IMG/VR virus record: IMGVR_UViG_3300037851_000187
Location: 1-36,191 of that record
Length of the DNA: 36,191 nucleotides
Origin: a virus
Taxonomy: Duplodnaviria > Caudoviricetes
Strand: one strand, 5' to 3'
Position numbers and translations under genes: made by a program
The notes under the pieces: model-generated
What the model was told of the DNA's origin: nothing
Database searches by the model: none
What the model saw: the letters and a program-made list of their open reading frames with translations, nothing else
In this document: piece by piece, positions 2,817-36,191 of the stretch
Position numbering within the stretch: the first letter of the stretch is position 1
Layout of the letters: each line of letters opens with the position of its first letter

Positions 2817-2932
2817 TAGTCGTGCAGGTGATGCTCGGGCTTGGTGACGTGTTTCGGTGCGTGCTTGATCCTGATGCGGATCTTCTCCGCCAGGCTTAGC
2901 CGTTTCGTTTTGACTTTGATCTTCTTTTTCAT
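2816..2932 (-). CDS. Small basic protein, 38 aa (MKKKIKVKTKRLSLAEKIRIRIKHAPKHVTKPEHHLHD)
   Basis: Not in the ORF track; fills the gap exactly, with an ATGA overlap upstream and a TAATG overlap downstream. Confidence 0.6.
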   Translation of the reverse strand: MKKKIKVKTKRLSLAEKIRIRIKHAPKHVTKPEHHLHD

Positions 2933-3375
2933 GGGTGCTCCGGTAGTAACAGCGGACTTAGACTGAGCAGCTCTGGACTTACCGCCCAGGGCTCAATGCG
3001 CGATAGCAGATCGATACCAGCCTTCTGACAGGCCGCGAACACCAGCTCCGAACAGAACCATTTACCGGTGCTCTTGCGGCTCTCCTGTCGGCGCGTGACA
3101 AACCGAACCACCATGGTTAGGTCATAGGGCTTGCCCACCTGCGATTCGCAGAAACAGCGAATGGTGCGCTCTTGATCTTCGGTTAGTCCGGCGATCTCGA
3201 ACCAGTCCACTTTGTGGTCCGGCGCGGGATTGACCACGCGCTGCACCTTCGGCCAGGTCGCCTCGATCAAGACGCCATCGGAGAATAGGATCGCGCCGTG
3301 GCTATACTCGCTGCGAGTTTGCCACTTGATCGCGCAGGGTATCAGCCCTGTATGTCTGTATAGACCGATCTTCAT
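2929..3375 (-). CDS. Permuted papain-like NlpC/P60 amidase (YiiX/YaeF, C92-like); candidate lysis enzyme
   Basis: YSHGAI (His) precedes GKPYD and WFCSELV (Cys), the permuted catalytic order. Confidence 0.8.
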   Translation of the reverse strand: MKIGLYRHTGLIPCAIKWQTRSEYSHGAILFSDGVLIEATWPKVQRVVNPAPDHKVDWFEIAGLTEDQERTIRCFCESQVGKPYDLTMVVRFVTRRQESRKSTGKWFCSELVFAACQKAGIDLLSRIEPWAVSPELLSLSPLLLPEHP

Positions 3376-3653
3376 TTCGTTGCGCCTCGGGCCGCGCCTT
3401 CGGCCACCGCGGACAACGCCTGCGCATCCGGGTTAGATCGCTGCACGCGCAGGCCGAACTTAAGCGCGCCATCCTCGGTGGTAGTGTCGATGCCTTCGCT
3501 CGACCACAGGAGCCGCACCGATGAGACGCGCAGCACGGACCCGTCCGGCATGGTGCGTGACCCGGTGATCATCGAGCACCCGCACAAGCTCAGCAGCATG
3601 ATTGCCGCGATACACAGCAGCACACCGATTGCGATTTTCTTACTCAGTCTCAT
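3372..3653 (-). CDS. Lipoprotein, spanin-like candidate (93 aa)
   Basis: Start MRLSKK at 3653 (ATGA overlap), hydrophobic stretch, lipobox-like LCGC. Confidence 0.6.
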   Translation of the reverse strand: MRLSKKIAIGVLLCIAAIMLLSLCGCSMITGSRTMPDGSVLRVSSVRLLWSSEGIDTTTEDGALKFGLRVQRSNPDAQALSAVAEGAARGATK

Positions 3654-3874
3654 AGATCCCCCGGTGGTAGTGGCGACTGCTTCAGATACGCGAGCAAGCC
3701 CACCGCCGCACCGCTCGCGAACAGGACCATTAGTTGCCGCATGTCGAGCGGCTTGATCGCCCCGCCGGCAGCGTCTGCAACACTGATGCCTAGGGCGGAC
3801 AAGCCGGATGTCGCGGCCCCGGTGATGGTCGCCGCCAGTAGATTGTGCAGCCATATCTTCGCCTTGGCTTTCAC
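3650..3874 (-). CDS. Holin-like membrane protein
   Basis: 74 aa, two hydrophobic segments, within the lysis-like cluster. Confidence 0.55.
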   Translation of the reverse strand: MKAKAKIWLHNLLAATITGAATSGLSALGISVADAAGGAIKPLDMRQLMVLFASGAAVGLLAYLKQSPLPPGDL

Positions 3875-4086
3875 TTGTTCCCCTCCAGCTTTTCGATCTT
3901 GGTTTCCATGCTCTGCAGCCTGTCGTCTAGGTTGGTGAACTTACGCGACATCCACCATACGGCAGGTAAGACGATGCCCGCGACGGAGAACACTGTGCCG
4001 AGGGAGACGCCGTGATTTTCGAGCGCGTCCCCGGCACTTACACCGCCGATCACGGCGCCAGCGAATAGGATGGAATCTTTGATCAT
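3871..4086 (-). CDS. Small membrane protein (holin/antiholin-like)
   Basis: 71 aa, hydrophobic segments followed by a charged coiled-coil-like tail. Confidence 0.5.
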   Translation of the reverse strand: MIKDSILFAGAVIGGVSAGDALENHGVSLGTVFSVAGIVLPAVWWMSRKFTNLDDRLQSMETKIEKLEGNK

Positions 4087-4087
4087 A

Positions 4088-5593
4088 TCATCGGATAGTT
4101 ACTCTACCGCGTATCGCCGACTTACCGCGCGCGACCGCGCGCGTGATGGGTGTGGGTGGTGCTGGCTCAGACTCGACAAACTCATAAGCGCCGATGTCCT
4201 TGGTTCCGCTTAGCCATACCCCGGTGCCAGCAGACCATGTGATCGCCGTGTCCACAGTGATCGTCGCCGCATCGTAATCAACGGCGGTGATCGTGCGGTC
4301 AGTCGAGCCGACTGTTACAGGGTCGCCTGCGGTTAGGCCAAATCCCGCGTGGAACGGTCTGGATGTGTCCAGCGTGATCGTGGTCGATGTGCCCGAGCCG
4401 ACAGTAACAGCTTGCGGCCCGGCAGCATTGCGCGCCGGAGAACTCTCGGTCAGACTATAGCCGGACAACAACGGGTCCGACGCTATCCCGTTTGATTCGG
4501 TGATCCCGATGCTGCCAGACAGATAGTAGCAGTCCCAGTTATTGGTCCATCCGGCAGGAGCCCCGGGGCCATAATAAAGCTGCGACGTGTCATCGTTGCA
4601 GTTGTAAAAGACGTTGTTGATCGACCACGAGTTGGTCCCATAACTCACGTCGACCAGCGGTGATTGGTGCGTGGTCGTGCCACACTCGATAAAGGTATTG
4701 TTGTAGCAAAGCGAGTAGGGGCAGTAAGTCGTGGTGAACGCATAGGAGCCCACCTGGTAGGCCACGTTGCGGCGGAACACAAAATGGCGGAACCCGGCCA
4801 TGTTCGCCGCCGACTGGCCGTTGAACCATGTCGTGTGCGAGTTGGCCATCAGGTTGGTCTCGATCACGTTCCCGTCAAAAAAAACCGTCACGGTTGGCAC
4901 GGTGTAAGCCTCGATACAGTCCGGGTGCGGGTCTGGATCCCACTCGTCAGCATCCACCCCAGTCAACCTATTCGACCGGACCAGAAAATTTTGGCCCTCG
5001 ACATAGAACCCGTCCGAGTAACGGTTGATAACGTTCTGCTCGATCAACACATTGGTGCCGACTATCGAGAAAGCCAGCGTCGCCGTGGTGGTATTGGTCT
5101 GCGCGCCTGCCGCAGTAACCGTGTTAGAACGCGCGATAAAGTTCCCGGCCCATTTGCCGGTTGCGGTGCGGACCCCGACCCCATACGTATCATGGATGTT
5201 GCATAGCTCGACAATTACGTTGGTCGAGTTGTCCAAAGTGACGCCCGCGTATGGCCAAGCTTCGCCGCCGCCGTGGTCTATCTCGAACCCGCGAATGGTG
5301 ACATGATGCTTGGTCGCCAGCGCGAACCCGCGACAGATCGCGCTCGTGCCCGAGAAGGTCACCCCGCTTCCACTCGTGCCGCCCGTGGTGACAGTTACCC
5401 GCTCATCATAGGTGCCCGCCGCGACATGGACCGTGTCGCCTGCCAAGATGCTATCCGCCGCGTGCTGGATTGTGCGCCACGGATTGGCCGATGAACCATC
5501 CCCGGTGTCATCGTGCCCGGTGGTCGTGACGTAATAGTCAGCGGCCCCACAGGACCACACACACAGAACCAAGATGAGCAGTGCACGGTTCAT
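4088..5593 (-). CDS. Signal-peptide right-handed beta-helix (pectate lyase-like, DUF1565-type N-terminus) protein
   Basis: Signal MNRALLILVLCVWSCGA; YYVTTTGHDDTGDGSSANPWRTIQHAAD motif; Asn-ladder repeats; DIGAYEF near the C-terminus. Confidence 0.8.
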   Translation of the reverse strand: MNRALLILVLCVWSCGAADYYVTTTGHDDTGDGSSANPWRTIQHAADSILAGDTVHVAAGTYDERVTVTTGGTSGSGVTFSGTSAICRGFALATKHHVTIRGFEIDHGGGEAWPYAGVTLDNSTNVIVELCNIHDTYGVGVRTATGKWAGNFIARSNTVTAAGAQTNTTTATLAFSIVGTNVLIEQNVINRYSDGFYVEGQNFLVRSNRLTGVDADEWDPDPHPDCIEAYTVPTVTVFFDGNVIETNLMANSHTTWFNGQSAANMAGFRHFVFRRNVAYQVGSYAFTTTYCPYSLCYNNTFIECGTTTHQSPLVDVSYGTNSWSINNVFYNCNDDTSQLYYGPGAPAGWTNNWDCYYLSGSIGITESNGIASDPLLSGYSLTESSPARNAAGPQAVTVGSGTSTTITLDTSRPFHAGFGLTAGDPVTVGSTDRTITAVDYDAATITVDTAITWSAGTGVWLSGTKDIGAYEFVESEPAPPTPITRAVARGKSAIRGRVTIR

Positions 5594-6153
5594 TCTTTGC
5601 TCAGGACGAAATAAAAGTCGTAGGTGCCGGACCCATACAGCGTGCCGTTGCTATACATCGCATAGGTCGTGTCGCTGTAGCCCGTGCCGCCCGCGACGGT
5701 GTAACAACGGAAGCGCGTAGTCGTGCCGGTTGCGCCAACGAAGAACATATAGCAACTGCCACTCGGCAGCGTCGGCTTAGTTGCGGTCCACGTGAACGTC
5801 TCGACGTTGGCCGTGTCCGTGCTGCTGACGGTGTTAGTGTTGGAGTTACCGCCATACTGTGTGCCCGTCCTATCGCCGCCGGACCAGAACTCGACGTGTA
5901 TATCTGCGTTGCCGCTGTTCTTGTAGAGCTTCGCTTTGACCTCGCAGACTGTGCCGCCTGTAGTGCTGAGCCGCTGCGAGAACAGATCGGTCAGGGTATC
6001 GTAATCATTATCGGTCGCGCACGTTTGACCGTCCCACGCGGCGCAACTCGGAGCCGCCACCCCCGCAATCGGGACCGTGCTACCCCCGCTCATCAGCAGC
6101 AGGTCTTGCCCGAGCACTGGTATCGCGAATAAGATGAGGAGTAGGTATCGCAT
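5590..6153 (-). CDS. Signal-peptide beta-rich protein (187 aa), putative adsorption accessory
   Basis: Start reassigned to MRYLLLILFAIPVLG|QD, just after the upstream stop; Thr/Gly/Ser-rich. Confidence 0.65.
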   Translation of the reverse strand: MRYLLLILFAIPVLGQDLLLMSGGSTVPIAGVAAPSCAAWDGQTCATDNDYDTLTDLFSQRLSTTGGTVCEVKAKLYKNSGNADIHVEFWSGGDRTGTQYGGNSNTNTVSSTDTANVETFTWTATKPTLPSGSCYMFFVGATGTTTRFRCYTVAGGTGYSDTTYAMYSNGTLYGSGTYDFYFVLSKE

Positions 6154-6154
6154 C

Positions 6155-8875
6155 TTACCACCAGTTAGACCCGTCACAGACAACGGTGAGCCGGTTGGTG
6201 GACGGCACACTCACGCTGAGCCCGCCCAAAATAGTCTGCACGCCGTTGGCATTGGTAACGATCACGCTGCCGGTTGTGCTAGCCGCAACTATGGTGAGCA
6301 TCCGGCCAACGGGCGTGCTGTTCGTCGCATTGAGAAGCGTGATCACTTGGTTTGTCCCGGTGCAGAACAGAACGCTATCCGTGGTTGCCACGCTGTAGTT
6401 AGTCGAGAACGCGGCCCTGCATGCGGACAAGAATCCAGTCGCAGTTACCAGTCCGTTAGTGCCGTTCAGTTTGATGACCTCGGCGGAATCATCCGACACG
6501 GCGAGATAGCCGGGGTTAGTGCCGGACGCGGCAAAGGATGATGCTGTGACCGCGCCGTTAGTTATCCCCACGCCGTTGATAATGCTGCCCGCGTTCGCCA
6601 CGGAGTTGCTGCCGACGATAACATGACCGCTTGCCACCATGTTGGACCCGGAGTGAACAGAGCCGCGCACATCAAGGTCATAATCGCCCGCGGGTTGCTT
6701 TTGGATCCCGACGCGACCACCCTCCTGAAAATACAGCGGCACCTTGCCGGTTCCACCTGAATCCTCCCAAAGGATCAGGTCATGCCCGCCTGAGGTAATC
6801 CACTGCCAGACCTTGTTGTCCACCCCCTGGAATGAGAGTGTCGGCCCGGTGGTTTTCATGATCGCGATGCTGTCCGCATACAGACTTCCGCTCGCGCGAA
6901 TTGTCCCAACAACGTCAAGCGGGAATTGGGCCGTGCTGGTGCCCACGCCGAAATTGGCGCCGTAGGCCGCGAACACACGCCCACCCGTCCCGGCGAGTCC
7001 GATGGGTGACGTGTTATCCTCCATATAATCCCCCACTGATAGTTGGCTCTGCCCAGTGAACGCAATGCCCATGCCGCACCCGCTTGCCCGGTTGCCGGTC
7101 GAATAGGAGTTGGTGCCTTGCAATCTGAATGCCTGAGCAAAACCGCCGTGCGCGACGTTGTGTGCCCACAGGTTGCGATAGCCCGATAGCTCAAGGAATG
7201 CGTAGTAACTCGTGTTAATGTTTCGCGCCAGATTGCCGATAATAGAGCAATCGCCTGGTCCGGCAGCGATCACCGCATAGTGCGCACCGTCAACTATGTT
7301 GCCGGACACCGTGATGTTGGTTACACCCGACACATAAATCCCAACATCGCCGGACCGCATGACCGTGTTTGCACTAACCAAACCATTGCCGCCGTCACCA
7401 GCGAGCAGCACACCGTGCCGCGCCGAGTCCGTGATTACGTTGCCGCTGACCGTGTGGCTTGTGTTGGTTGGCGGCAGGCCGCACGCGACAGACACGCCGT
7501 CGTTGCCGGACCCCGCGACCGTGTTACCTGTAGCAACTACCGCGCGGCAGTTAGACAGTGCGATACCTGCGCGCAGCAAACTAATGCCGGTCTGCTGCAA
7601 TACGCAGTTGGTCACCGAGTTTCCGGTCACCACACAATAGTCTGCCCGCTGCATGTAGATCCCCGTCCCGGCAGTGTTCTGCACCACGTTTCCGGCGACA
7701 ACGTTGTGGCGTGCGGTGTAGTCGTTACCGGACACCATATAGATGCAAATTCCGTAGCCGGACGCCTCGGCATTTCCTAGTTGGTTATTTTGATCGATCC
7801 GGTTCCGACTGATGGCGGAGTTGCGCAAGTCGAAGCAGAGTATGGAGAAGGCGCACGAAGATCCCTCGATCCTGTTGCCGCTGATGTCCAACGATTCGGA
7901 CCCGCCGGCCTCATCGCGCCCCACCATAATATCTGCCGAGGCGTGCGAGTTGGTGCTATACAAACCATAACTGCCGTTGCCGTGGAATCGGTTATTCTGA
8001 ACTTTTACGCCCACAGAATTTCCGATGTAGACCCCCGCAACCGACTGATTACTATGCACGATTCCGGCCCCGGAGATATCCGCATCCTGCACCGTGCAAT
8101 TTGTCGCGCCGAGAAAATAGACAGCTACGCGGCTGGCTCCGGCCATGCGCAATCCGTCTATGCTGACATTCTCCTTGTTGGTAATTTCAATTCCGTTATA
8201 TGTGGTTGCGGCAAAAAGTAACGTGCCCAGACCGTGCAGTCTTGTGTGGCTACTGGGGCGCACTGTGCTGGTAAGGTATGTGCCGCCTGGGAAATAAACG
8301 TTTGTGCATGCATCCATTGCGGCCTGGATCGCAGCGGTATCATCCGTTACACCATCACCCACCGCCCCGTATAGCTTCACGTTGCCCGCATGCTCCCAAA
8401 TCGCATTAGTCACGCTGGCAGCAGGCAGCCCGGAGTTAGTCGCCCCCGACACGGTCACTACGCCCTTACCGTTGGTAGGCGATAGCGTGATGTTGCCCCC
8501 CGCGATCAACTGTTGAACGAAGGGTGGCGCCACCACGGACGATGCTACGCTACTGGTTAGTTCGGTTAGCCAGTAGGTGTTGGTATCGTCCGGAACCGAG
8601 AAGTAAACCGGCTGCGTGAATGGCACGCCGACAATGCGCACCTCGTAGCGTCCGGTCTGTAGGTTGGTCTGCGCGTAGCCCGCGACTGTCGCGAGCCGCA
8701 TCGGATTGCCGGTGATGATCCATTGCCCGCTGGCAACGGGATTTGTCACCATGAAGATCTGCAACGTATGGTTGCCGGGCGCAACAGACCAGAAGTTAGT
8801 CAGCGCGATCTTGACCGTCGATGCCTGCGCGGTGACACAGGCGAGAAGTCCTATCAGGCTAAGAAGTTTTTTCAT
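6155..8875 (-). CDS. Tailspike-like pectate lyase 3/beta-helix protein with signal peptide (906 aa)
   Basis: Start MKKLLSLIGLLACVTAQA|ST; NVKLYGAVGDGVTDDTAAIQAA..VYFPGGTYL motif; GN-V/I beta-helix repeats; GVGTSTAQFPLDVVG fibre motif; ends VVCDGSNWW. Confidence 0.85.
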   Translation of the reverse strand: MKKLLSLIGLLACVTAQASTVKIALTNFWSVAPGNHTLQIFMVTNPVASGQWIITGNPMRLATVAGYAQTNLQTGRYEVRIVGVPFTQPVYFSVPDDTNTYWLTELTSSVASSVVAPPFVQQLIAGGNITLSPTNGKGVVTVSGATNSGLPAASVTNAIWEHAGNVKLYGAVGDGVTDDTAAIQAAMDACTNVYFPGGTYLTSTVRPSSHTRLHGLGTLLFAATTYNGIEITNKENVSIDGLRMAGASRVAVYFLGATNCTVQDADISGAGIVHSNQSVAGVYIGNSVGVKVQNNRFHGNGSYGLYSTNSHASADIMVGRDEAGGSESLDISGNRIEGSSCAFSILCFDLRNSAISRNRIDQNNQLGNAEASGYGICIYMVSGNDYTARHNVVAGNVVQNTAGTGIYMQRADYCVVTGNSVTNCVLQQTGISLLRAGIALSNCRAVVATGNTVAGSGNDGVSVACGLPPTNTSHTVSGNVITDSARHGVLLAGDGGNGLVSANTVMRSGDVGIYVSGVTNITVSGNIVDGAHYAVIAAGPGDCSIIGNLARNINTSYYAFLELSGYRNLWAHNVAHGGFAQAFRLQGTNSYSTGNRASGCGMGIAFTGQSQLSVGDYMEDNTSPIGLAGTGGRVFAAYGANFGVGTSTAQFPLDVVGTIRASGSLYADSIAIMKTTGPTLSFQGVDNKVWQWITSGGHDLILWEDSGGTGKVPLYFQEGGRVGIQKQPAGDYDLDVRGSVHSGSNMVASGHVIVGSNSVANAGSIINGVGITNGAVTASSFAASGTNPGYLAVSDDSAEVIKLNGTNGLVTATGFLSACRAAFSTNYSVATTDSVLFCTGTNQVITLLNATNSTPVGRMLTIVAASTTGSVIVTNANGVQTILGGLSVSVPSTNRLTVVCDGSNWW

Positions 8876-8937
8876 GGTAACGATTTGTTTTTGGTAAGGT
8901 CGGCAGGGCACCAGTAAAAACCGCGACATGTTCACGG

Positions 8938-8964
8938 AAAAACCTGATGCCCCGCCGTGGCGGG
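8938..8964 (-). terminator. Possible intrinsic terminator after the capsid and 145-aa genes
   Basis: Minus strand CCCGC-CACG-GCGGG hairpin, then TTTTT after a short gap. Confidence 0.35.
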
Positions 8965-8971
8965 AATGTCC

Positions 8972-9409
8972 TTACGGAGCGTTTAGCTTCGTTGAGTAGC
9001 GCACCTGAAAGTTGGTGACCACGGCAGATGCCGCAGCGTTACTAACCCAGGCGAGCTTGAGATACCCGATGCCGCCCACAACGAAGTTGGTTACGGCATG
9101 GGTGGCTGTAGTGCCGGCATTGGCGACGGGCACAAGCAACACATCAGCGCCATAGCTCGTGCCGTCAACGGACTTGGCAAACGCGAACACGGTGTTCGCG
9201 GTGTTAGCAGCGTCGCTCTGCGTCTTGAGTTGGAGCGCGACGTTCTGGCATTTGCGGCAGTCGATAACCGCCGTTGTCGCGCCGTTAGTCGCCGAGGATC
9301 CGGCGATCTGCGAGAAGCCCGGTGTGACCGTGCCCCAGCCGTATTTCTGCGCGTGGACCGAGCAGGTCAACAGCGCCAGTGCGAGGATGGTTCCGAAGAA
9401 GATTTTCAT
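8972..9409 (-). CDS. Signal-peptide protein in the capsid-decoration position (145 aa)
   Basis: MKIFFGTILALALLTCSVHA|QK; beta-sandwich-like (KSVDGTSY, GYLKL); directly after the capsid gene with an AAAGGA RBS. Confidence 0.65.
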   Translation of the reverse strand: MKIFFGTILALALLTCSVHAQKYGWGTVTPGFSQIAGSSATNGATTAVIDCRKCQNVALQLKTQSDAANTANTVFAFAKSVDGTSYGADVLLVPVANAGTTATHAVTNFVVGGIGYLKLAWVSNAAASAVVTNFQVRYSTKLNAP

Positions 9410-9451: not shown

Positions 9452-11365
9452 TTACGCGCTCTTGAGCAAGCAGCCAGCGGCGGGGTCGCCCTTGGCAGCG
9501 CCGAACAGCACATCCATCGTCCACCAACCCGTGCGGCTCGCGGTCGAGAACCAGGTATAGCTGGCAACACTGAGCCCGATACCCGGCACAGTCACAACCT
9601 CGCGGGCGAGGTTAGACGCACCGATCATGTTGGGCGCTTCAGCGGGCAGCATCGCCCCAATGCAGATAGCCTGCGGATTGCAGGCGAAGCCGTAGGTGTT
9701 GGTCTCGGCTCCGGTCCAGTTGGTGTTGAGATAGAACCCATCCCAGCCGGGCAGCGTGTTACCCGCAAGCGGGTTGAAGTTTTCGAGCGTGGCGGGCAAG
9801 AAATACTTGTAGTAGTTCTGATGCAGCATCACGTTCTTGATCGGTGACTTCGCGATTGACCCCCACATGTTGTCCAGATCGTCCTTCGTGAAGTTGGTGC
9901 TGGTCGCAACTACCGCGGACGTTCCAGCCTCAAGCTGACTGGTGCGGTCGAAGTTGGTTGTGGTGATGATCGCGTTGACAAGGGACTGAAGCTTGTCGGC
10001 CATCTCGGCGGCCTTGATCTCGGCGAACCAGCCCATGCGCCAGCCGTTGGTCAGCTCCGCATTGGTGATGTGCGCCCCGACGGTGATCTGCGCCGGGGTG
10101 ATCGCAATGTCGTCCATCGTACCGACAAAGTTAGTCGTGTCCTCAAAACTCGTAGCCCCGCTCTGCGCCGTGCCGCCAGCGGTGGCAATCGGCACTTCGA
10201 TGATGTTCCGCTTGCCCTGCGCAGCCGTGGCCGTGAAGTTGCGCGCGAACGCATTCAGCGGCGCGAGCCGATTCTGTAGGACGGTGATGAAACCCTCAGC
10301 GAGAACGGCGGGGGTAAGCGCGCCAGCGGCGGTGTCGGTGTTGGCGTCGTAGATGACGGGGTAACTGCGGCTAAGTTCGCCCCAGTTGTCGCGGAGAAAC
10401 TCGAACCGTTTCTTACCGCGCGGCATGGGTTTGAGTAGGTCGTTCAGACCTTCGCGGGTGATCTGCGCAGGGCCGGTGCTCACCGGCTTGTTAGCGAGCG
10501 CCTTCACCTGAAGCTCAAGTGCGGCGATGCGGTCATCGGCGGTCTGGTTAGGAGCCGCCGGGGTATTGGTATCAGTCATTGGATCCTTTGTGTTACTGTT
10601 GGTGGCGGGGTTAATTGGCGGCTCCGCCTTGCCGTCCACGGCACTAGCCGGGGAAAGAGCAGCAGCCGCAGGCGTGACGGGATTGCACTCGGTCTCTGCC
10701 GTTGCGTTGTGTGTGTCCCCTTTGCCGTGCGTGCTGCCGAAAATCTGACTTAGTAAGTCGTGCGGTATGTTCTTGAATTTGCTCGCGTCGAACTTAGCGA
10801 GCGCCACCGGCTCCTCGTTGGTCTCAGTCGCGAACCCGAGCGTCACCGCTTCACCGCCGCGAAACCATGTTTCCGCCTTCATCTTCTCGCGGGCCTCGTG
10901 CAGCGTGATGCCGGCGCGGTCCCGATAGATCGCTGCGATAGCGTCACCGTGGATCTCAAGCATGGCTGCGGTCTTGAGCATGTCCTCGGCATTACCGCTG
11001 GCCACGGTCCAGGGCTCGTGTATCATCCACATGGCCCCCGACGGACTAATGCGCCTGGCGCCGGCGAGCGCGACCACGGAAGCAATCGAAAGCGCATAGC
11101 CATCAACGCGAGTCGTGACCTTATCTCCTCTTCGGAGCAGGGCGTGATAGATGCCGAGCCCGTCCTTGACACTGCCTCCTTCGGAGTTGATGCCAATCGT
11201 AATAGGTCGATCCTCGGGAATTGCTTGTAACGCATCGGTGAACTCCTTCTCGCTTATACCGCTGTCATCCCACCAATCCTTGCCGATAGTGCCTTGGATC
11301 AGGATCTCGGCGGGCTTGTTAGCCTCGTTGCGAATTGTCAACCATGGTTGAGATTTTGCGCTCAT
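9452..11365 (-). CDS. ClpP-type (S14) prohead protease fused to major capsid protein (637 aa)
   Basis: Start MSAKSQ at 11365 (ATGA overlap with portal); INSEGGSV, ALSIASVVALAG, MIHEPW, ETWF ClpP motifs; Pro/Ala linker; capsid-like C-terminal domain. Confidence 0.85.
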   Translation of the reverse strand: MSAKSQPWLTIRNEANKPAEILIQGTIGKDWWDDSGISEKEFTDALQAIPEDRPITIGINSEGGSVKDGLGIYHALLRRGDKVTTRVDGYALSIASVVALAGARRISPSGAMWMIHEPWTVASGNAEDMLKTAAMLEIHGDAIAAIYRDRAGITLHEAREKMKAETWFRGGEAVTLGFATETNEEPVALAKFDASKFKNIPHDLLSQIFGSTHGKGDTHNATAETECNPVTPAAAALSPASAVDGKAEPPINPATNSNTKDPMTDTNTPAAPNQTADDRIAALELQVKALANKPVSTGPAQITREGLNDLLKPMPRGKKRFEFLRDNWGELSRSYPVIYDANTDTAAGALTPAVLAEGFITVLQNRLAPLNAFARNFTATAAQGKRNIIEVPIATAGGTAQSGATSFEDTTNFVGTMDDIAITPAQITVGAHITNAELTNGWRMGWFAEIKAAEMADKLQSLVNAIITTTNFDRTSQLEAGTSAVVATSTNFTKDDLDNMWGSIAKSPIKNVMLHQNYYKYFLPATLENFNPLAGNTLPGWDGFYLNTNWTGAETNTYGFACNPQAICIGAMLPAEAPNMIGASNLAREVVTVPGIGLSVASYTWFSTASRTGWWTMDVLFGAAKGDPAAGCLLKSA

Positions 11366-18986: not shown

Positions 18987-19640
18987 TTACAGCGCCCGAT
19001 CATCTCCGGCTTGGTGATGCTGCGAGAACCACATGAGCGCGAACGCATGCCACGCTACGCAGCCCAGGTGGTGGTTGCCTAACTCATCGCGGTCCTCGCC
19101 GCGCCACCAGCGCCAGGCGTGACGCATCATAGCCGCGAAAGATAGCCCCCATTTGTAGCCGCGCCTCCAGTTGTGATCGGCATACTTAGCCGCACCGCGA
19201 CCATAGACGCGGGCCAACTCCTCCAGCGGCTCGACCGGGATAAGATCGAACCGCTCAAGCTTCGAGCCCTTCTGTCCCCCGGTGACGGGGTCCGTGACAC
19301 GGACCTCGTCGGTGACAGGCTCAAGCGTTTGCGCGTCGAGCACCGGCTTGTCCAATGCCCGTGCAACGTGGACTTCGAGTGTTGCGCCCCTCGACTTTTC
19401 CCACCCGGGCAGGACGGCGACGGCGTCAGCCATGCATACCGCTGGCAGGTCGCGCGCCATGTAATGCGGCATGCCCCGAGGCTGATCCGTAGCGGGGTCG
19501 AAGCCGTCTTTCTCGACATCGTTTTCCGCAGGCGACCACACTTCATGCCCGCGCCCGCGCAAGTCTTTCGCCGCACGGTCAAACGCGGGGAAGTTGAACA
19601 GGGGAATGCCGCGCATCGGCCCGGCTAAATAGAGTCGCAT
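18987..19640 (-). CDS. DUF4406 (NDT-like) fused to DUF5664 (dATP/dGTP diphosphohydrolase-like)
   Basis: RLYLAGPMRG..FNFPAF and LPGWEKSRGATLE; KLERFDLIP, GAAKYADHNWRRG, MRH, HLGCVAW. Confidence 0.75.
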   Translation of the reverse strand: MRLYLAGPMRGIPLFNFPAFDRAAKDLRGRGHEVWSPAENDVEKDGFDPATDQPRGMPHYMARDLPAVCMADAVAVLPGWEKSRGATLEVHVARALDKPVLDAQTLEPVTDEVRVTDPVTGGQKGSKLERFDLIPVEPLEELARVYGRGAAKYADHNWRRGYKWGLSFAAMMRHAWRWWRGEDRDELGNHHLGCVAWHAFALMWFSQHHQAGDDRAL

Positions 19641-20228: not shown

Positions 20229-21032
20229 TCACTTCACGATTTCGATCAACTCAAGCCGCGCGCAGCGGGCCTTGCCGTCCGTGCCGAATGGGACTACCAC
20301 ATCAGCAAGATCCTCCCAGTTGATCCGGCATCGCCACACCGTGCGGTCCGGCGAGTAAGTCCTTCGCACCCATTCCAGCGTCGCGAATGACACACCGCAG
20401 CCGCACATCGTGCAGCGATCCGGGTTAGGCGTCTCGGCCAAGAATTGTCCCGGCGCAAAGGTCCAGTGTGCAGGGGGTGGATACTCGCCGCATTGTGCGC
20501 GGTAGACGATTATGCCGTCTGGGTCGCGCGAAAATTGGGCGAGAAAACTTTTGGCAGACGGAATACCTTGCGCGCCGGACAAGTTCGCGTCGCGCAAGTT
20601 CGCGTCGCGCAAGTTCGCGTCGCGCAAGTTCGCGTCGCGCAAGTTCGCGCCGCGCAAGTTCGCGTCGGACAAGGTCGCGCCGGACAAGTTCGCACGGGAC
20701 AAGTTCGCGTCGGACAAGGTCGCGCCGGACAAGTTCGCACGGGACAAGTTCGCGTCGGACAAGGTCGCGCCGGACAAGTTCGCGTCGCGCAAGTTCGCGT
20801 CGCGCAAGTTCGCGTCGCGCAAGTTCGCGCCGCGCAAGTTCGCGCCGCGCAAGTTCGCGTCGCGCAAGTTCGCGTCGCGCAAGTTCGCGCCGCGCAAGTC
20901 CGCGTCGCTCAAGTCCGCGTCGCTCAAGTTCGCGCCGCTCAAGTTCGCGCCGCTCAAGTCCGCGCCGGACAAGCTGTCTGCCGCAATGGTGGTGATTATT
21001 TGTTGTGTGAATCGGTGTCTTATTTCGATCAT
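20229..21032 (-). CDS. Pentapeptide repeat protein with Cys-containing C-terminal domain (267 aa)
   Basis: Start MIEIRHRF at 21032 (ATGA overlap); about 27 A(N/D/T)L(S/R)x repeats. Confidence 0.9.
   Translation of the reverse strand: MIEIRHRFTQQIITTIAADSLSGADLSGANLSGANLSDADLSDADLRGANLRDANLRDANLRGANLRGANLRDANLRDANLRDANLSGATLSDANLSRANLSGATLSDANLSRANLSGATLSDANLRGANLRDANLRDANLRDANLRDANLSGAQGIPSAKSFLAQFSRDPDGIIVYRAQCGEYPPPAHWTFAPGQFLAETPNPDRCTMCGCGVSFATLEWVRRTYSPDRTVWRCRINWEDLADVVVPFGTDGKARCARLELIEIVK
20571..20975. repeat. 15-bp coding tandem repeat (about 27 units)
   Basis: CAAGTTCGCGTCGCG-type units encoding the pentapeptide repeats. Confidence 0.9.
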
Positions 21033-30361: not shown

Positions 30362-30622
30362 CTACCACTTATCCGCGCAACATTTTTCCGACTTCAGCCG
30401 CGTCTTATCTCGGAGCAGGCATTGGCATAGGTTGCAGCGCCGCATCTTCACCGCGCCGTCCGGCCCGGTGCGTTTCTCGCTGTGCTCGCACGCGCGGCAG
30501 ATAGACCGTCTCGCCCCGATAGTTGCGTCATCGGTCAAGCCGATGCGCATGCGTGACTTGAGCAGACCAACGGCGCCGTGTGCGACCGCGCGCATAGTCA
30601 GCTTACCGTTGCAACAACTCAT
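30362..30622 (-). CDS. Small basic Cys-rich protein (86 aa, 9 Cys)
   Basis: RRSICRACE, CNLCQC, KCC..KW; ATGA-coupled to the upstream gene. Confidence 0.7.
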   Translation of the reverse strand: MSCCNGKLTMRAVAHGAVGLLKSRMRIGLTDDATIGARRSICRACEHSEKRTGPDGAVKMRRCNLCQCLLRDKTRLKSEKCCADKW

Positions 30623-32325
30623 ATCCATTCCGAGTCAATGCAGCCACCGGGCGGGACATAGTCTGCCGGGTCCGCGTCACCCGCGCCGTAGGTGAATCCA
30701 TCAGGTAGGGTGGGTGCGGTCTCGCTGTTCCACGTCGGATAATCGCAGCGCGCCTCGACAAGTGGCCCGTCACCCAGGTCCGTGTCCCATAAGTAGTCCT
30801 CCAGGGTGAACTGCGCGATAGCTTGCCAGCATAGCTCACGCTCCGCGTTCGGAAACGCGATGGTCTCGCCGTTCGGAAACGTCTCGCCGCTCGGCGTGAT
30901 CGCAACTATCGGCGGGCCGCAGCGATCTTCCCCAAGACATTTCTGCGTGCATGTATAGGTGCCCACGCCCAACTCATCCACAGTCTGCGCGGTCGAGTCC
31001 GCGGTGATACTGGTGCTGTCCACTGTCGGAGCGCACGGGTTATACTCCCATTCGAGCAGCACATAGTCACCCTTGCTCTGATCGTCGTGCCACCAGTAAG
31101 ACGGAGCGCCAGTTGACCAGATGTAACCGCCCCCGGTGTAACTGCCGGACAGCGTGCCGGGGACCGAGATATGGGTGGAGTCGGTGACCGTCACGGACAG
31201 ACTATCGCCGAGCCCATTGATCCCGTCCGTGTCGATGCTGTCTCCGGTCTGTAGGTAGGGTGCAGCATCAGTGAGCACCAGGTCCACGTTACCACCGTTC
31301 TGCGTTGCGCTTGCCACCGCGCAGCGGCCACAAATCGGCCATGCGATGGATGAAAATCTCGCGTCGTTCCGGTCATCGCCGCATGGTCGAAAATGGTTAA
31401 AACTGGGCGTTGCAGGCATCACAGCGCACCATTTTTGCAGATAAACGCTCGTTGTGGAGTCGGCATGTGCCATCGCGCCATCGGGCGCGCCGAGCACATA
31501 CTCGGGTGTATCGACACCCATCACATCGCCCGTGTAATTGCCCGCGTTCGGGTCAGCGTAATCGCATAGGTCCGGCCCGCTCGCATCTATCGGCGGACGC
31601 GCCCCGTCCTCATCATAGTAGAGCTTGCGGACAGCGTCGTCCGTCCACGGCATGGCCACGTCATCCGATAGGCTCAGGTTGGCCAACAGGTTGACCGTGT
31701 CTAGCCAGCACTCAGCGAGTGAGTAAGTCTCGCCGAGCGTGATGACCGCATGATAGCGGACGACATGATCAGACGGGCCTGGAGTCGGGCCGAATAGATC
31801 GTGCGTCAACGATGTGTTGCTGTAGCTGCACGTCTCGCGCCACTCACCGCAGCCGGTCTCGGGGTCCGGCGGCGTGTTCACGTTCCATGCCGTGAGATAA
31901 TACTCGGGGCAATGGCTATCGAGCATGTCGTAATGCTCAAGGATGATCGGTGCGGAGTATTCATCCGACACGCAGTTAGTCACCGTGATAACTCCGGTAT
32001 ATCTGCCGACGGTCAACGTAGCTGAGAAAGGATACTGCGTCTCATACTCGGTCACCACGCAGTTATCTGGGCTGCCGGTGACGTTGCCCATCGTGTAGTA
32101 ACCCTCGATCTTCCATTGCCGATACTTCGTCGTGCCCTGTTCGCACGCGGGCTTGCAATAGTCCTGGAACCCGAACATGCCGTGCCAAGCCTTCTGCGCC
32201 TGGGCCGCTTTCCACCCGGCCGGAAAGCAGGCCGACATATCGCACGGGCCGAGAAAGCCCTTGGTCAATCCCTCGGGCCAGCCGCCGCACGGTTCGCGGT
32301 AAGGTGCTTGAGCTTCGCCAGCCAT
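30619..32325 (-). CDS. Acidic Cys-rich tail-module protein (568 aa)
   Basis: About 23 Cys, Asp/Thr/Gly-rich; contains a VTVTDSTHISV ubiquitin-activating/FCCH-like beta segment; downstream of the fibre gene. Confidence 0.55.
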   Translation of the reverse strand: MAGEAQAPYREPCGGWPEGLTKGFLGPCDMSACFPAGWKAAQAQKAWHGMFGFQDYCKPACEQGTTKYRQWKIEGYYTMGNVTGSPDNCVVTEYETQYPFSATLTVGRYTGVITVTNCVSDEYSAPIILEHYDMLDSHCPEYYLTAWNVNTPPDPETGCGEWRETCSYSNTSLTHDLFGPTPGPSDHVVRYHAVITLGETYSLAECWLDTVNLLANLSLSDDVAMPWTDDAVRKLYYDEDGARPPIDASGPDLCDYADPNAGNYTGDVMGVDTPEYVLGAPDGAMAHADSTTSVYLQKWCAVMPATPSFNHFRPCGDDRNDARFSSIAWPICGRCAVASATQNGGNVDLVLTDAAPYLQTGDSIDTDGINGLGDSLSVTVTDSTHISVPGTLSGSYTGGGYIWSTGAPSYWWHDDQSKGDYVLLEWEYNPCAPTVDSTSITADSTAQTVDELGVGTYTCTQKCLGEDRCGPPIVAITPSGETFPNGETIAFPNAERELCWQAIAQFTLEDYLWDTDLGDGPLVEARCDYPTWNSETAPTLPDGFTYGAGDADPADYVPPGGCIDSEWI

Positions 32326-32331
32326 CGACGG

Positions 32332-33168
32332 CTAGAGTTTCATGATGAACGCGAGCACGTAGTAAGCCGGACTTACATCCGCTGCCGTGCCCGTGAACGT
32401 CGGTTGCGACACTGTCCCGGCTGGCGTGTAACTCGCGGAGCCGCCGCTTGGATCCGCGCTCGTTGCAGTTATCCCGGTCGTGTTAGTCGTGGTAGGATAG
32501 CCGCTGTTGAACCATGAGTAACTCGCCGACGCGTCCAGTGTCCACGCCGTGCCCGTCCCGGTGGTCGCCGAGTTGCGCGATTGCGTGTGCGCGTGCCCCG
32601 GGTCATTCACACTGATCGTGTGTGTGTGGTTGACCACGACGGTGGAAGAGGACCCCGTGAATGTCGGTTGTGATACCGTGCCTGCCGGTGTGTAACTCGT
32701 GCTGCCGCCCGTGCCGCCTGGCGCAACACCATTCGTCCAGCCCTTGATAAATTTCTCGCGCAGATCCGGCGTCCCGTTGTTGCCATCACACAGCGCCCAC
32801 CCGCTCGGCACGTTCGCCAGCGCGCCGGACCACATGCAGATCACACCCGCAGGCACACCGCCCGCGGATACCCCGTTAGTCGCCGGCTGATAGCCGAGCG
32901 CATTTGTGATCCCCGCGAAGCTATTGGTCGCCGGTGTGTAGCCGAGCGCATCCTGCTTCGCTGATGTCGCGAGCGCAGCCCAGGCGGTGAGGTTCGCGTT
33001 GGTCGGCTGCTTGTTCTCGCTTAACCACACGTCGTTTGTGTTCAGTTTGATCATCGCGGTCCGCAACGGGTCACCGTCACCCGCGTTCGGTGCGGACCCG
33101 ATATTGACATTGGTGATCTGCGCCGCAGCCAGCATCGGCCACAGCGCGAGTAATAGTATCCATCTCAT
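32332..33168 (-). CDS. Collar-domain tail fibre with T4 gp9/gp10-like N-terminal motif and signal peptide
   Basis: MRWILLLALWPMLAAA|Q; VNIGSAPNAGDGDPLRTAMIKLN; GVICMWSG..VPSGWALCDGNNGTPDLREKF; PAYYVLAFIMKL. Confidence 0.8.
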   Translation of the reverse strand: MRWILLLALWPMLAAAQITNVNIGSAPNAGDGDPLRTAMIKLNTNDVWLSENKQPTNANLTAWAALATSAKQDALGYTPATNSFAGITNALGYQPATNGVSAGGVPAGVICMWSGALANVPSGWALCDGNNGTPDLREKFIKGWTNGVAPGGTGGSTSYTPAGTVSQPTFTGSSSTVVVNHTHTISVNDPGHAHTQSRNSATTGTGTAWTLDASASYSWFNSGYPTTTNTTGITATSADPSGGSASYTPAGTVSQPTFTGTAADVSPAYYVLAFIMKL

Positions 33169-35854: not shown

Positions 35855-36191
35855 CTTGCGCCTTTTCGTTTTGCGATTTTAGCCATGCCCCGCGGACCTT
35901 GTCGGATTGGTTGAAGAATATCTCGCTCGGGTTCTTTGTCTTGATGATACACCGCAGATACTGGTGCAGCCTGCGCACGGGTATCTGCATGATCTCGCGC
36001 TCGCTCCATCCTAGCTGGGTGGCTAAGTGAGTTACCACGTATGCCGCGCCGGAATAGTAAGTCGGCGAGAACACGTCACCGCGCTTGCCGCTACCTCCCG
36101 GACTGTCGCACAATGCGTCATCGACATACGCATTGATCGCGGTGACCAGGTCGAGAAACTTCAGCTTCAGCGTGCGCCGCATGAACCGCGC
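35841..36191 (-). CDS. Putative tail assembly chaperone, 3' part (starts at 439 across the junction)
   Basis: HLATQLGWSEREIMQIP resembles the chaperone C-terminal extension motif; frame is continuous across the overlap. Confidence 0.7.
   Translation of the reverse strand, partial: ARFMRRTLKLKFLDLVTAINAYVDDALCDSPGGSGKRGDVFSPTYYSGAAYVVTHLATQLGWSEREIMQIPVRRLHQYLRCIIKTKNPSEIFFNQSDKVRGAWLKSQNEKAQDGSA
36065..36191. repeat. Terminal 127-bp direct repeat, copy 2
   Basis: Identical to 1-127. Confidence 0.95.

Follow-up and report, generated by a model that had tools for sequence, protein, structure and literature searches.

Filamentous phages route their coat proteins through the export machinery of the host. 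Among prophages, the late PBSX protein XepA is exported and does not occur in mature particles (PMC6834076); a further paper treats phage-encoded envelope proteins and, in the part consulted, no virion parts (10.64898/2026.10.24.761521). Here we analyze a tailed-phage genome, IMG/VR record IMGVR_UViG_3300037851_000187 (36,191 nucleotides, nt; the whole record, hereafter the window), in which five genes for predicted outer parts of the particle begin with Sec-type leaders: a tail fibre of 278 amino acids (aa), a 906-aa spike, a 145-aa jelly-roll protein and two proteins of 187 and 501 aa. Leaders stand on all five, in two cases directly before a predicted particle-anchoring domain, and the outer parts therefore likely mature outside the cytoplasm. 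Our best explanation, which we hold with some reserve to be probable, is that they are exported by Sec, fold and are probably modified by the host in the periplasm, and dock after the holin has opened the inner membrane. We make this claim most firmly for the fibre and the spike, less so for the 145-aa protein and least for those of 187 and 501 aa. The parts are of known kinds and it is the Sec route that is undescribed: within the literature searched (most subscription papers and supplements lying outside), we found no account of Sec-exported tailed-virion parts or of the Thr-Asn motif discussed below.

The five genes lie on the minus strand and open at ATG codons at 9409, 8875, 6153, 5593 and 33168. 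Signals were called with a rule-based heuristic on the n/h/c layout, not with SignalP. Each leader has one or two basic residues followed by an uncharged 10-residue core (mean Kyte-Doolittle 2.5-3.15) and a predicted cut, namely VHA↓Q (9409), AQA↓S (8875), VLG↓Q (6153), CGA↓A (5593) and AAA↓Q (33168), so that the basic region, hydrophobic core and small-X-small site described in an earlier sequence-only reading are borne out by this heuristic at every ATG it quoted. The same heuristic is passed by 10 of the 313 ATG-started open stretches of 60 codons in the window, all five genes included, and is failed by the capsid, portal, both tubes, neck and tape measure, in agreement with the earlier description of capsid, portal, tail tubes and tape measure as leaderless. 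An upstream stop fixes three of the starts: 6153 lies 1 nt and 33168 lies 2 nt beyond it, and at 5593 stop and start overlap as ATGA. A Shine-Dalgarno-like element precedes 9409 and 33168; none precedes 8875, where homologues align at Met1 and Ala18.

The same division recurs in related phages, whose core clusters are leaderless: tube (72 members), neck (43), tape measure (47), the gene after the tape measure (46), protease/capsid (53), terminase (22), portal (30) and the gene after the tube (66), all sizes that include near-duplicates. Three leader proteins, one of them a LamG lectin, were chained into a "terminator" cluster and are not counted as core. A non-lipoprotein leader gene is present in 11 of 26 distinct loci of at least 10 kilobases (kb). 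On a tree of 26 tube proteins, to which three loci contributed no row and in which some loci scored as lacking a leader are incomplete, leader presence needs 7 changes versus 8.9 in shuffles, so the leaders mark no clade. A separate family of 135-140 aa with a leader and 7-8 Thr-Asn pairs, matching no known family, sits in the core tail module and adjoins the tube or tape-measure gene (L008:9542-9949, L067:4522-4944, L031:12099-12509, and loci L058, L074 and L078).

A very unlikely reading of these leaders is that nothing is exported: the leaders would tether nascent parts to the inner face of the membrane and be removed by the ClpP-type protease of the phage, or the virion forms would be leaderless isoforms made from internal starts. 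Met12 in the 278-aa gene and Met21 in the 187-aa gene could indeed yield leaderless forms and qualify the assignment of true starts, three of which the upstream stops otherwise pin. Hydrophobic N-terminal extensions also occur in Mu-like prophages of the same host class, where Phage_cement_2 proteins and one major capsid protein start with long hydrophobic segments (L122:7855-8373, L123:7897-8415, L124:8216-8734 and L119:10013-11119) that may be a membrane tether, a signal or a mis-called start. Against retention in the cytoplasm stand the textbook-like n/h/c layout, with Ala at -1 conserved over 135 aligned rows of the 145-aa family; the absence of early internal ATG codons, before residue 42 in the spike gene and through codon 44 in those for the 145-aa and 501-aa proteins; and the Thr-Asn excess that the leader proteins share with exported host proteins.

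One of the two firmest cases for export of virion parts is the 278-aa tail fibre (32332..33168, minus strand), encoded after the tape measure and two genes in tail-tip position. Its 16-residue leader (33121-33168) precedes a T4 gp10-type anchor (about 33019-33120), and a putative collar domain follows at about 32779-32847 (PF07484, 21.8 bits, below the cut-off of 24). The predicted mature N-terminus is matched to residues 3-61 of the T4 baseplate protein gp10 at E 7e-6 (3-row profile), and with the leader skipped the fibre aligns with Met1 of both phiM9 gp128 and WAX24361 of Bradyrhizobium phage ppBeUSDA76-1, the latter encoded after the central tail fibre J. The anchor motif occurs in 100 open reading frames (ORFs) from the top-ranked 80 of 499 viral loci; of these ORFs, 86 lack a leader, 5 carry one and 9 are of other kinds. 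A leader stands before the same gp10-type anchor in five viral loci with G+C contents of 37-64% (L139, L140, L141, L146 and L174). Matches to PHROG tail fibres reach E 5e-18, cultured-phage tail fibres match residues 85-278, the protein was not found in four host genomes, and its first 80 residues were not found in 401 genomes of the host class. By these sequence comparisons, the fibre is a standard virion anchor with a leader placed in front. The two genes that follow it (30619-32325 and 30362-30628) are leaderless and cysteine-rich (23 and 9 Cys), the longer one without a recognised family, and possibly encode metal-binding tail-tip proteins.

The 906-aa spike (6155..8875, minus strand) has the same arrangement: a leader (8822-8875), a predicted Stf/neck-fibre-like anchor (about 8543-8821), a right-handed beta-helix body (PF13229, E 8e-22; phrog_2234 tail spike, E 4e-23) and a C-terminal PF25692 phage depolymerase domain (25.7 bits versus a cut-off of 25). 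Residues 19-125 fall in the ESM Atlas with the PF08400 (lambda Stf-type N-terminal) cluster (0.90, 171 shared features). Structure ranking of the N-terminal domain gave the A-1(L) neck fibre (Z 8.6; root-mean-square deviation, rmsd, 3.9 over 82 aligned residues), the Bxb1 tail tip (8.2), the Ur-lambda tail tip (7.7) and the XM1 neck (7.3), and two structure searches placed neck-fibre and tail-tip chains first. These alignments run from chain residue 2-3, so the solved anchor chains are without a leader. This first mature domain recurs behind a leader in loci L031, L049, L067 and L138; it had no cultured-phage match, and a word-indexed protein search returned the query alone. We predict from its modeled fold that the domain is a particle anchor, and the gene lies where one for a neck spike might be expected, with head genes on one side and neck genes on the other. 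The sequence-only reading had presumed that a signal peptide stands in place of a particle-binding domain; this is wrong for both fibre and spike if, as predicted, the two occur in them in tandem.

Virion membership is likewise predicted, with weaker support, for the 145-aa protein (8972..9409, minus strand; leader 9350-9409), whose gene directly follows that of the capsid. An exhaustive search gave 491 relatives at 50% clustering, query included. Among the best 150 of these, 111 have a leader by a strict test and 8 more through an internal ATG, and a looser test raises this to 131 and 10, or 141 of 150; most of the remaining 9 look truncated or mis-started. Together with the leader-bearing homologues of the spike domain, these counts uphold the expectation that homologues conserve the signal. 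In the alignment Ala20 is kept in 127 of 135 rows and Gln21 in 121. Because a leader in the query favours leader-bearing matches, the profile was rebuilt without it; of the 17 genes it found in fetched loci, 10 pass strictly, 4 have a leader by eye, 2 are ambiguous and 1 is leaderless. Pfam classes that exception (L068:77-490; E 2.4e-4 with the mature-part profile) as a Bbp16 cement protein, and its direct comparison with the 145-aa protein is very weak (probability score 3.6). PF21190 itself does not match the window protein and matches 2 of 135 family members at E 0.002.

Position and fold agree with a cement or decoration role. In 401 genomes of the class to which host genome G001 belongs, 15 matches occur in 13 genomes, 8 of them directly or one gene behind the major capsid gene, with one after an unnamed 363-aa gene and two in the tail region; with genome G002 included, the capsid neighbours span four head types (ClpP-fusion, phrog_10, phrog_1005 and phrog_247). 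The model is a confident jelly-roll (predicted local distance difference test, pLDDT, 93), and the nearest ESM Atlas feature clusters hold viral proteins 120-123 aa long, which matches the mature protein in length. The top 50 rows of the structure searches contained no tailed-phage cement protein, an absence of no weight against the role; a word-indexed search returned the query alone; and a complex prediction with two capsid subunits and the mature protein, run without control complexes, scored 0.09 against a mark of 0.32, which speaks neither for nor against binding. Place and modeled fold make this protein cement-like, on weaker grounds than those for the fibre and spike.

The remaining two leader proteins follow the spike. 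The 187-aa protein (5590..6153, minus strand) begins 1 nt behind the spike gene, had no family match and is possibly, by position, a spike-tip adhesin. The 501-aa protein (4088..5593, minus strand) combines DUF1565 with a beta-helix, and no virion anchor was recognised in it. Directly behind the block lies a putative lysis cassette (2929..4086, minus strand), read as a putative holin, a spanin-like lipoprotein and a papain-like enzyme; it consists of two small hydrophobic genes (3871-4086 and 3650-3874), a lipobox protein that would be spanin-like (3372-3653) and a YaeF/YiiX permuted papain-like enzyme (2929-3375), the last being the sole endolysin candidate recognised in the genome.

This setting is where a second reading has its evidence, namely that the leader proteins are exported late and act off the particle, as XepA-like helpers of lysis or exit, as capsule-degrading enzymes or as decoys that block receptors against competing phages. 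Several observations count in its favor and against a virion role. Like xepA-type genes, the four-gene block stands just ahead of genes for lysis. The 145-aa protein has a generic jelly-roll fold; XepA is its best structural match (Z 9.6, rmsd 4.8, 116 aligned), nearly tied with a carbohydrate-binding module (Z 9.2), and is itself exported and absent from mature particles (PMC6834076). The 501-aa protein has no cultured-phage match; it is similar to host secreted proteins, present in 30 of 251 host-class genomes and aligned for the most part over its first 80-180 residues. Being host-like and without a recognised anchor, it could be a secreted enzyme that the phage captured, whether or not it joins the particle, and the secreted-depolymerase alternative of the sequence-only reading may apply to it.

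For the fibre and spike, that alternative is opposed by the conserved particle-type anchors at the mature N-termini. The 278-aa gene moreover lies where fibre genes usually do, and the complete genome yielded no further recognisable gene for a fibre or spike. A cultured phage offers a further point: in the record of Cellulophaga phage phi18:3 (KC821620), gp085-gp087 are noted as "structural protein, experimental MS/MS" (mass spectrometry, MS) and all three bear leaders by our heuristic, whereas 9 other MS-marked proteins in the two fetched stretches are leaderless. The literature searched held no interpretation of these leaders as export signals. We consider export to an off-particle role unlikely for the set as a whole. 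The earlier proposal that the leader proteins are both exported and part of the virion holds best for the two proteins with predicted anchors, extends with less force to the 145-aa protein through its position and jelly-roll, and has least behind it for the 501-aa protein, in which no anchor was recognised.

A compositional feature links the leader proteins to one another and to the host. Thr-Asn pairs occur 41 times in the five leader proteins versus 15.8 expected (2.6-fold; 0 of 2000 shuffles as high), and the spike alone holds 23, whereas leaderless structural proteins of the window have 9 versus 8.0 and non-structural proteins 1 versus 4.3. In related phages the counts are 205 versus 72.6 (2.83) for leader proteins, 133 versus 106 (1.25) for leaderless fibres and 355 versus 341 (1.04) for the remaining proteins, and unrelated leaderless anchor proteins give a ratio of 0.75. 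Two Thr-Asn sites are kept in 121 and 123 of 135 rows of the 145-aa family. We sampled host stretches L081-L098, L126-L133 and L219-L238 (from genomes G001, G002, G003, G061, G070, G329 and G339). The Thr-Asn ratio of host leader proteins is 1.77 in G001, 1.92 in G339, 3.06 in G329 and 1.65 in G002, without clear excess in G003 (1.15) and G061 (1.19), G070 being represented by one protein; in the pooled non-cytoplasmic set Thr-Asn reaches 1.9 and every other X-Asn pair at most 1.27. In the rough cytoplasmic sets, where counts are small, the ratios are 1.18, 1.51, 1.75 and 0.6, so the contrast is clear only in G001 and G002; in G001, RpoB has 1 Thr-Asn among 33 Asn and RpoC 2 among 48. We read Thr-Asn as most likely a host mark on exported proteins, with glycosylation the likeliest form, and in four Verrucomicrobiota-class genomes it is possibly an undescribed protein modification motif.

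Of the two reasons for export proposed earlier, disulfides and modification, the first does not hold as a general cause. In the 145-aa family, 37 of 135 members have no Cys in the mature part and 49 have one, that is, 86 of 135 with 0 or 1; Cys counts are 14 in the 906-aa and 8 in the 501-aa protein (both even) and 5 in the 187-aa protein. Modification fits better, by way of the conserved Thr-Asn motif. N-x-S/T glycosylation was rejected as the cause, as these sequons stand at chance level in the five proteins (14 versus 12.6, 3 versus 6.1, 4 versus 4.3, 1 versus 1.9 and 0 versus 1.5). Separately, relatives carry GT2 glycosyltransferase genes between their head genes, one of them joined to a methyltransferase (L009:780-4019, L010:5308-8323 and L068:593-1393), the weakly matched gene in L068 coming after the leaderless Bbp16 cement gene; such capsid-adjacent glycosyltransferases may be a cytoplasmic way to the same end.

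Further results weigh against export of modified virion parts. The signal calls depend on a heuristic. For the spike N-terminal domain, the model is of modest quality (pLDDT 74, from 6 sequences), Foldseek yields no E-value better than 1e-3, pilin domains score level with the phage anchors (Z 7.8), and there is no Pfam PF08400 match. Of the 15 matches to the 145-aa protein in host-class genomes, three have no recognised capsid gene ahead of them, another sits at the end of a contig and a further three are weak ones inside long ORFs. As for the Thr-Asn mark, both near-invariant sites of the 145-aa family are in predicted strands and may be structural; the leaderless capsid domain (9452-10345) has 7 Thr-Asn versus 2.7 expected (p 0.008, one of several tests), related capsids holding 0 to 5; host G003 lacks the excess though its prophage has a leader-bearing spike homologue, itself without the mark; and STT3/PglB was found in 0 of 4 and 0 of 5 incomplete host genomes. 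The MS detection in phi18:3, as given in the notes of its record, could reflect co-purification.

The genomic setting bears on one more alternative. The final 127 nt of the record (36065..36191) repeat bases 1-127 exactly, and this terminal repeat indicates that the contig is a complete circular assembly. The phage is 36 kb long, tailed and temperate; every recognised gene is on the minus strand, among them an integrase, a gpA-type terminase, a lambda-type portal, the tape measure and, from family searches, a leaderless fusion of a ClpP-type protease with the major capsid protein (9452..11365). Given the integrase, and relatives that are prophages, the leader genes might be morons whose surface or periplasmic products serve the lysogenic host. 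The genes are co-oriented and tightly coupled in a head-to-tail operon, no promoter-like site was found on the gene strand between 11365 and 4088, and the leader genes hold their places in many phages, all of which makes lysogenic conversion, to our minds, highly improbable.

Paired genes at 436-840 and 850-1206 are tandem paralogues, 60% identical, that are unnamed in the family libraries searched and that we read as tail tubes by position; locus L002 likewise holds paired tube-like genes. The tube-family profile found 6 loci in GTDB genomes, 4 in Verrucomicrobiota and 2 on short contigs in other bins, and on this sequence evidence the host phylum is likely Verrucomicrobiota. The capsid used as query matched zero viral loci, and locus L001 was dropped as an out-of-frame chance match. 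Elsewhere in the window, 20229-21032 is a pentapeptide-repeat gene made of a 15-nt repeat array, and 18987-19640 fuses a dATP/dGTP diphosphohydrolase domain and DUF4406 in one gene. Intergenic hairpins between the 145-aa and 906-aa genes (8915..8971, minus strand) are a possible step-down terminator, their folding being within shuffle range (z -1.3).

For export followed by docking, the course of events would be as follows. During late transcription the core parts would be made in the cytoplasm and the leader-bearing parts handed to Sec. The predicted cut by signal peptidase would free N-terminal anchors in the register that leaderless relatives are observed to have, and the parts would fold in the periplasm and probably be modified there at Thr-Asn by a host enzyme. 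Once the holin has opened the inner membrane, they could attach to the cytoplasmically built heads and tails while the outer membrane is still whole, a time and place that we infer. We hypothesize more broadly, and only tentatively, that tailed phages of Verrucomicrobiota might use two-compartment assembly, in which a cytoplasmic core receives Sec-routed cement, neck spikes and fibres, glycosylated at Thr-Asn by an undescribed host periplasmic system other than PglB and attached after the holin opens and before the outer membrane ruptures, leaving the virion clad in host surface sugar. If parts are indeed added in this interval, lysis includes a step of assembly, and phages gain access to folding and modification of proteins in the periplasm with enzymes that they need not encode. 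The reading predicts host-glycosylated virions and would explain why some receptor-binding proteins may fail when expressed in the cytoplasm; the Thr-Asn mark on exported proteins of some Verrucomicrobiota also points to an unknown protein modification system.

Set beside described systems, this arrangement is partly familiar. The coats of filamentous phages are likewise exported virion proteins, but they are inserted in the membrane, extruded without lysis and unrelated to HK97-fold tailed phages. Bbp16 (PF21190) resembles the 145-aa protein in size, jelly-roll and place behind the capsid gene, with weak sequence links, and differs in that the 145-aa protein has a leader and no Pfam match. 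PBSX XepA and SPbeta YomS are, like it, late prophage jelly-rolls found beyond the cytoplasmic membrane and are encoded by the lysis genes; they differ in having a Gram-positive host, in forming a pentamer and in being off mature particles, and the available part of the source names no signal peptide (PMC6834076). The PF08400, A-1(L), XM1 and Bxb1 anchors are the best fold and language-model matches of the first mature domain of the spike, although the solved chains have no leader and the fold is common to pilin domains. T4 gp10, phiM9 gp128 and WAX24361 share their N-terminal motif, register included, with the predicted mature fibre, but begin at the motif itself and have no leader. Phage phi18:3 has a Bacteroidota host, shows no Thr-Asn excess (20 versus 16.8) and has a record silent on export; as a tailed phage with three adjacent MS-marked structural proteins whose leaders end in S↓Q or A↓Q, it is nonetheless a cultured test case for the export of virion parts.

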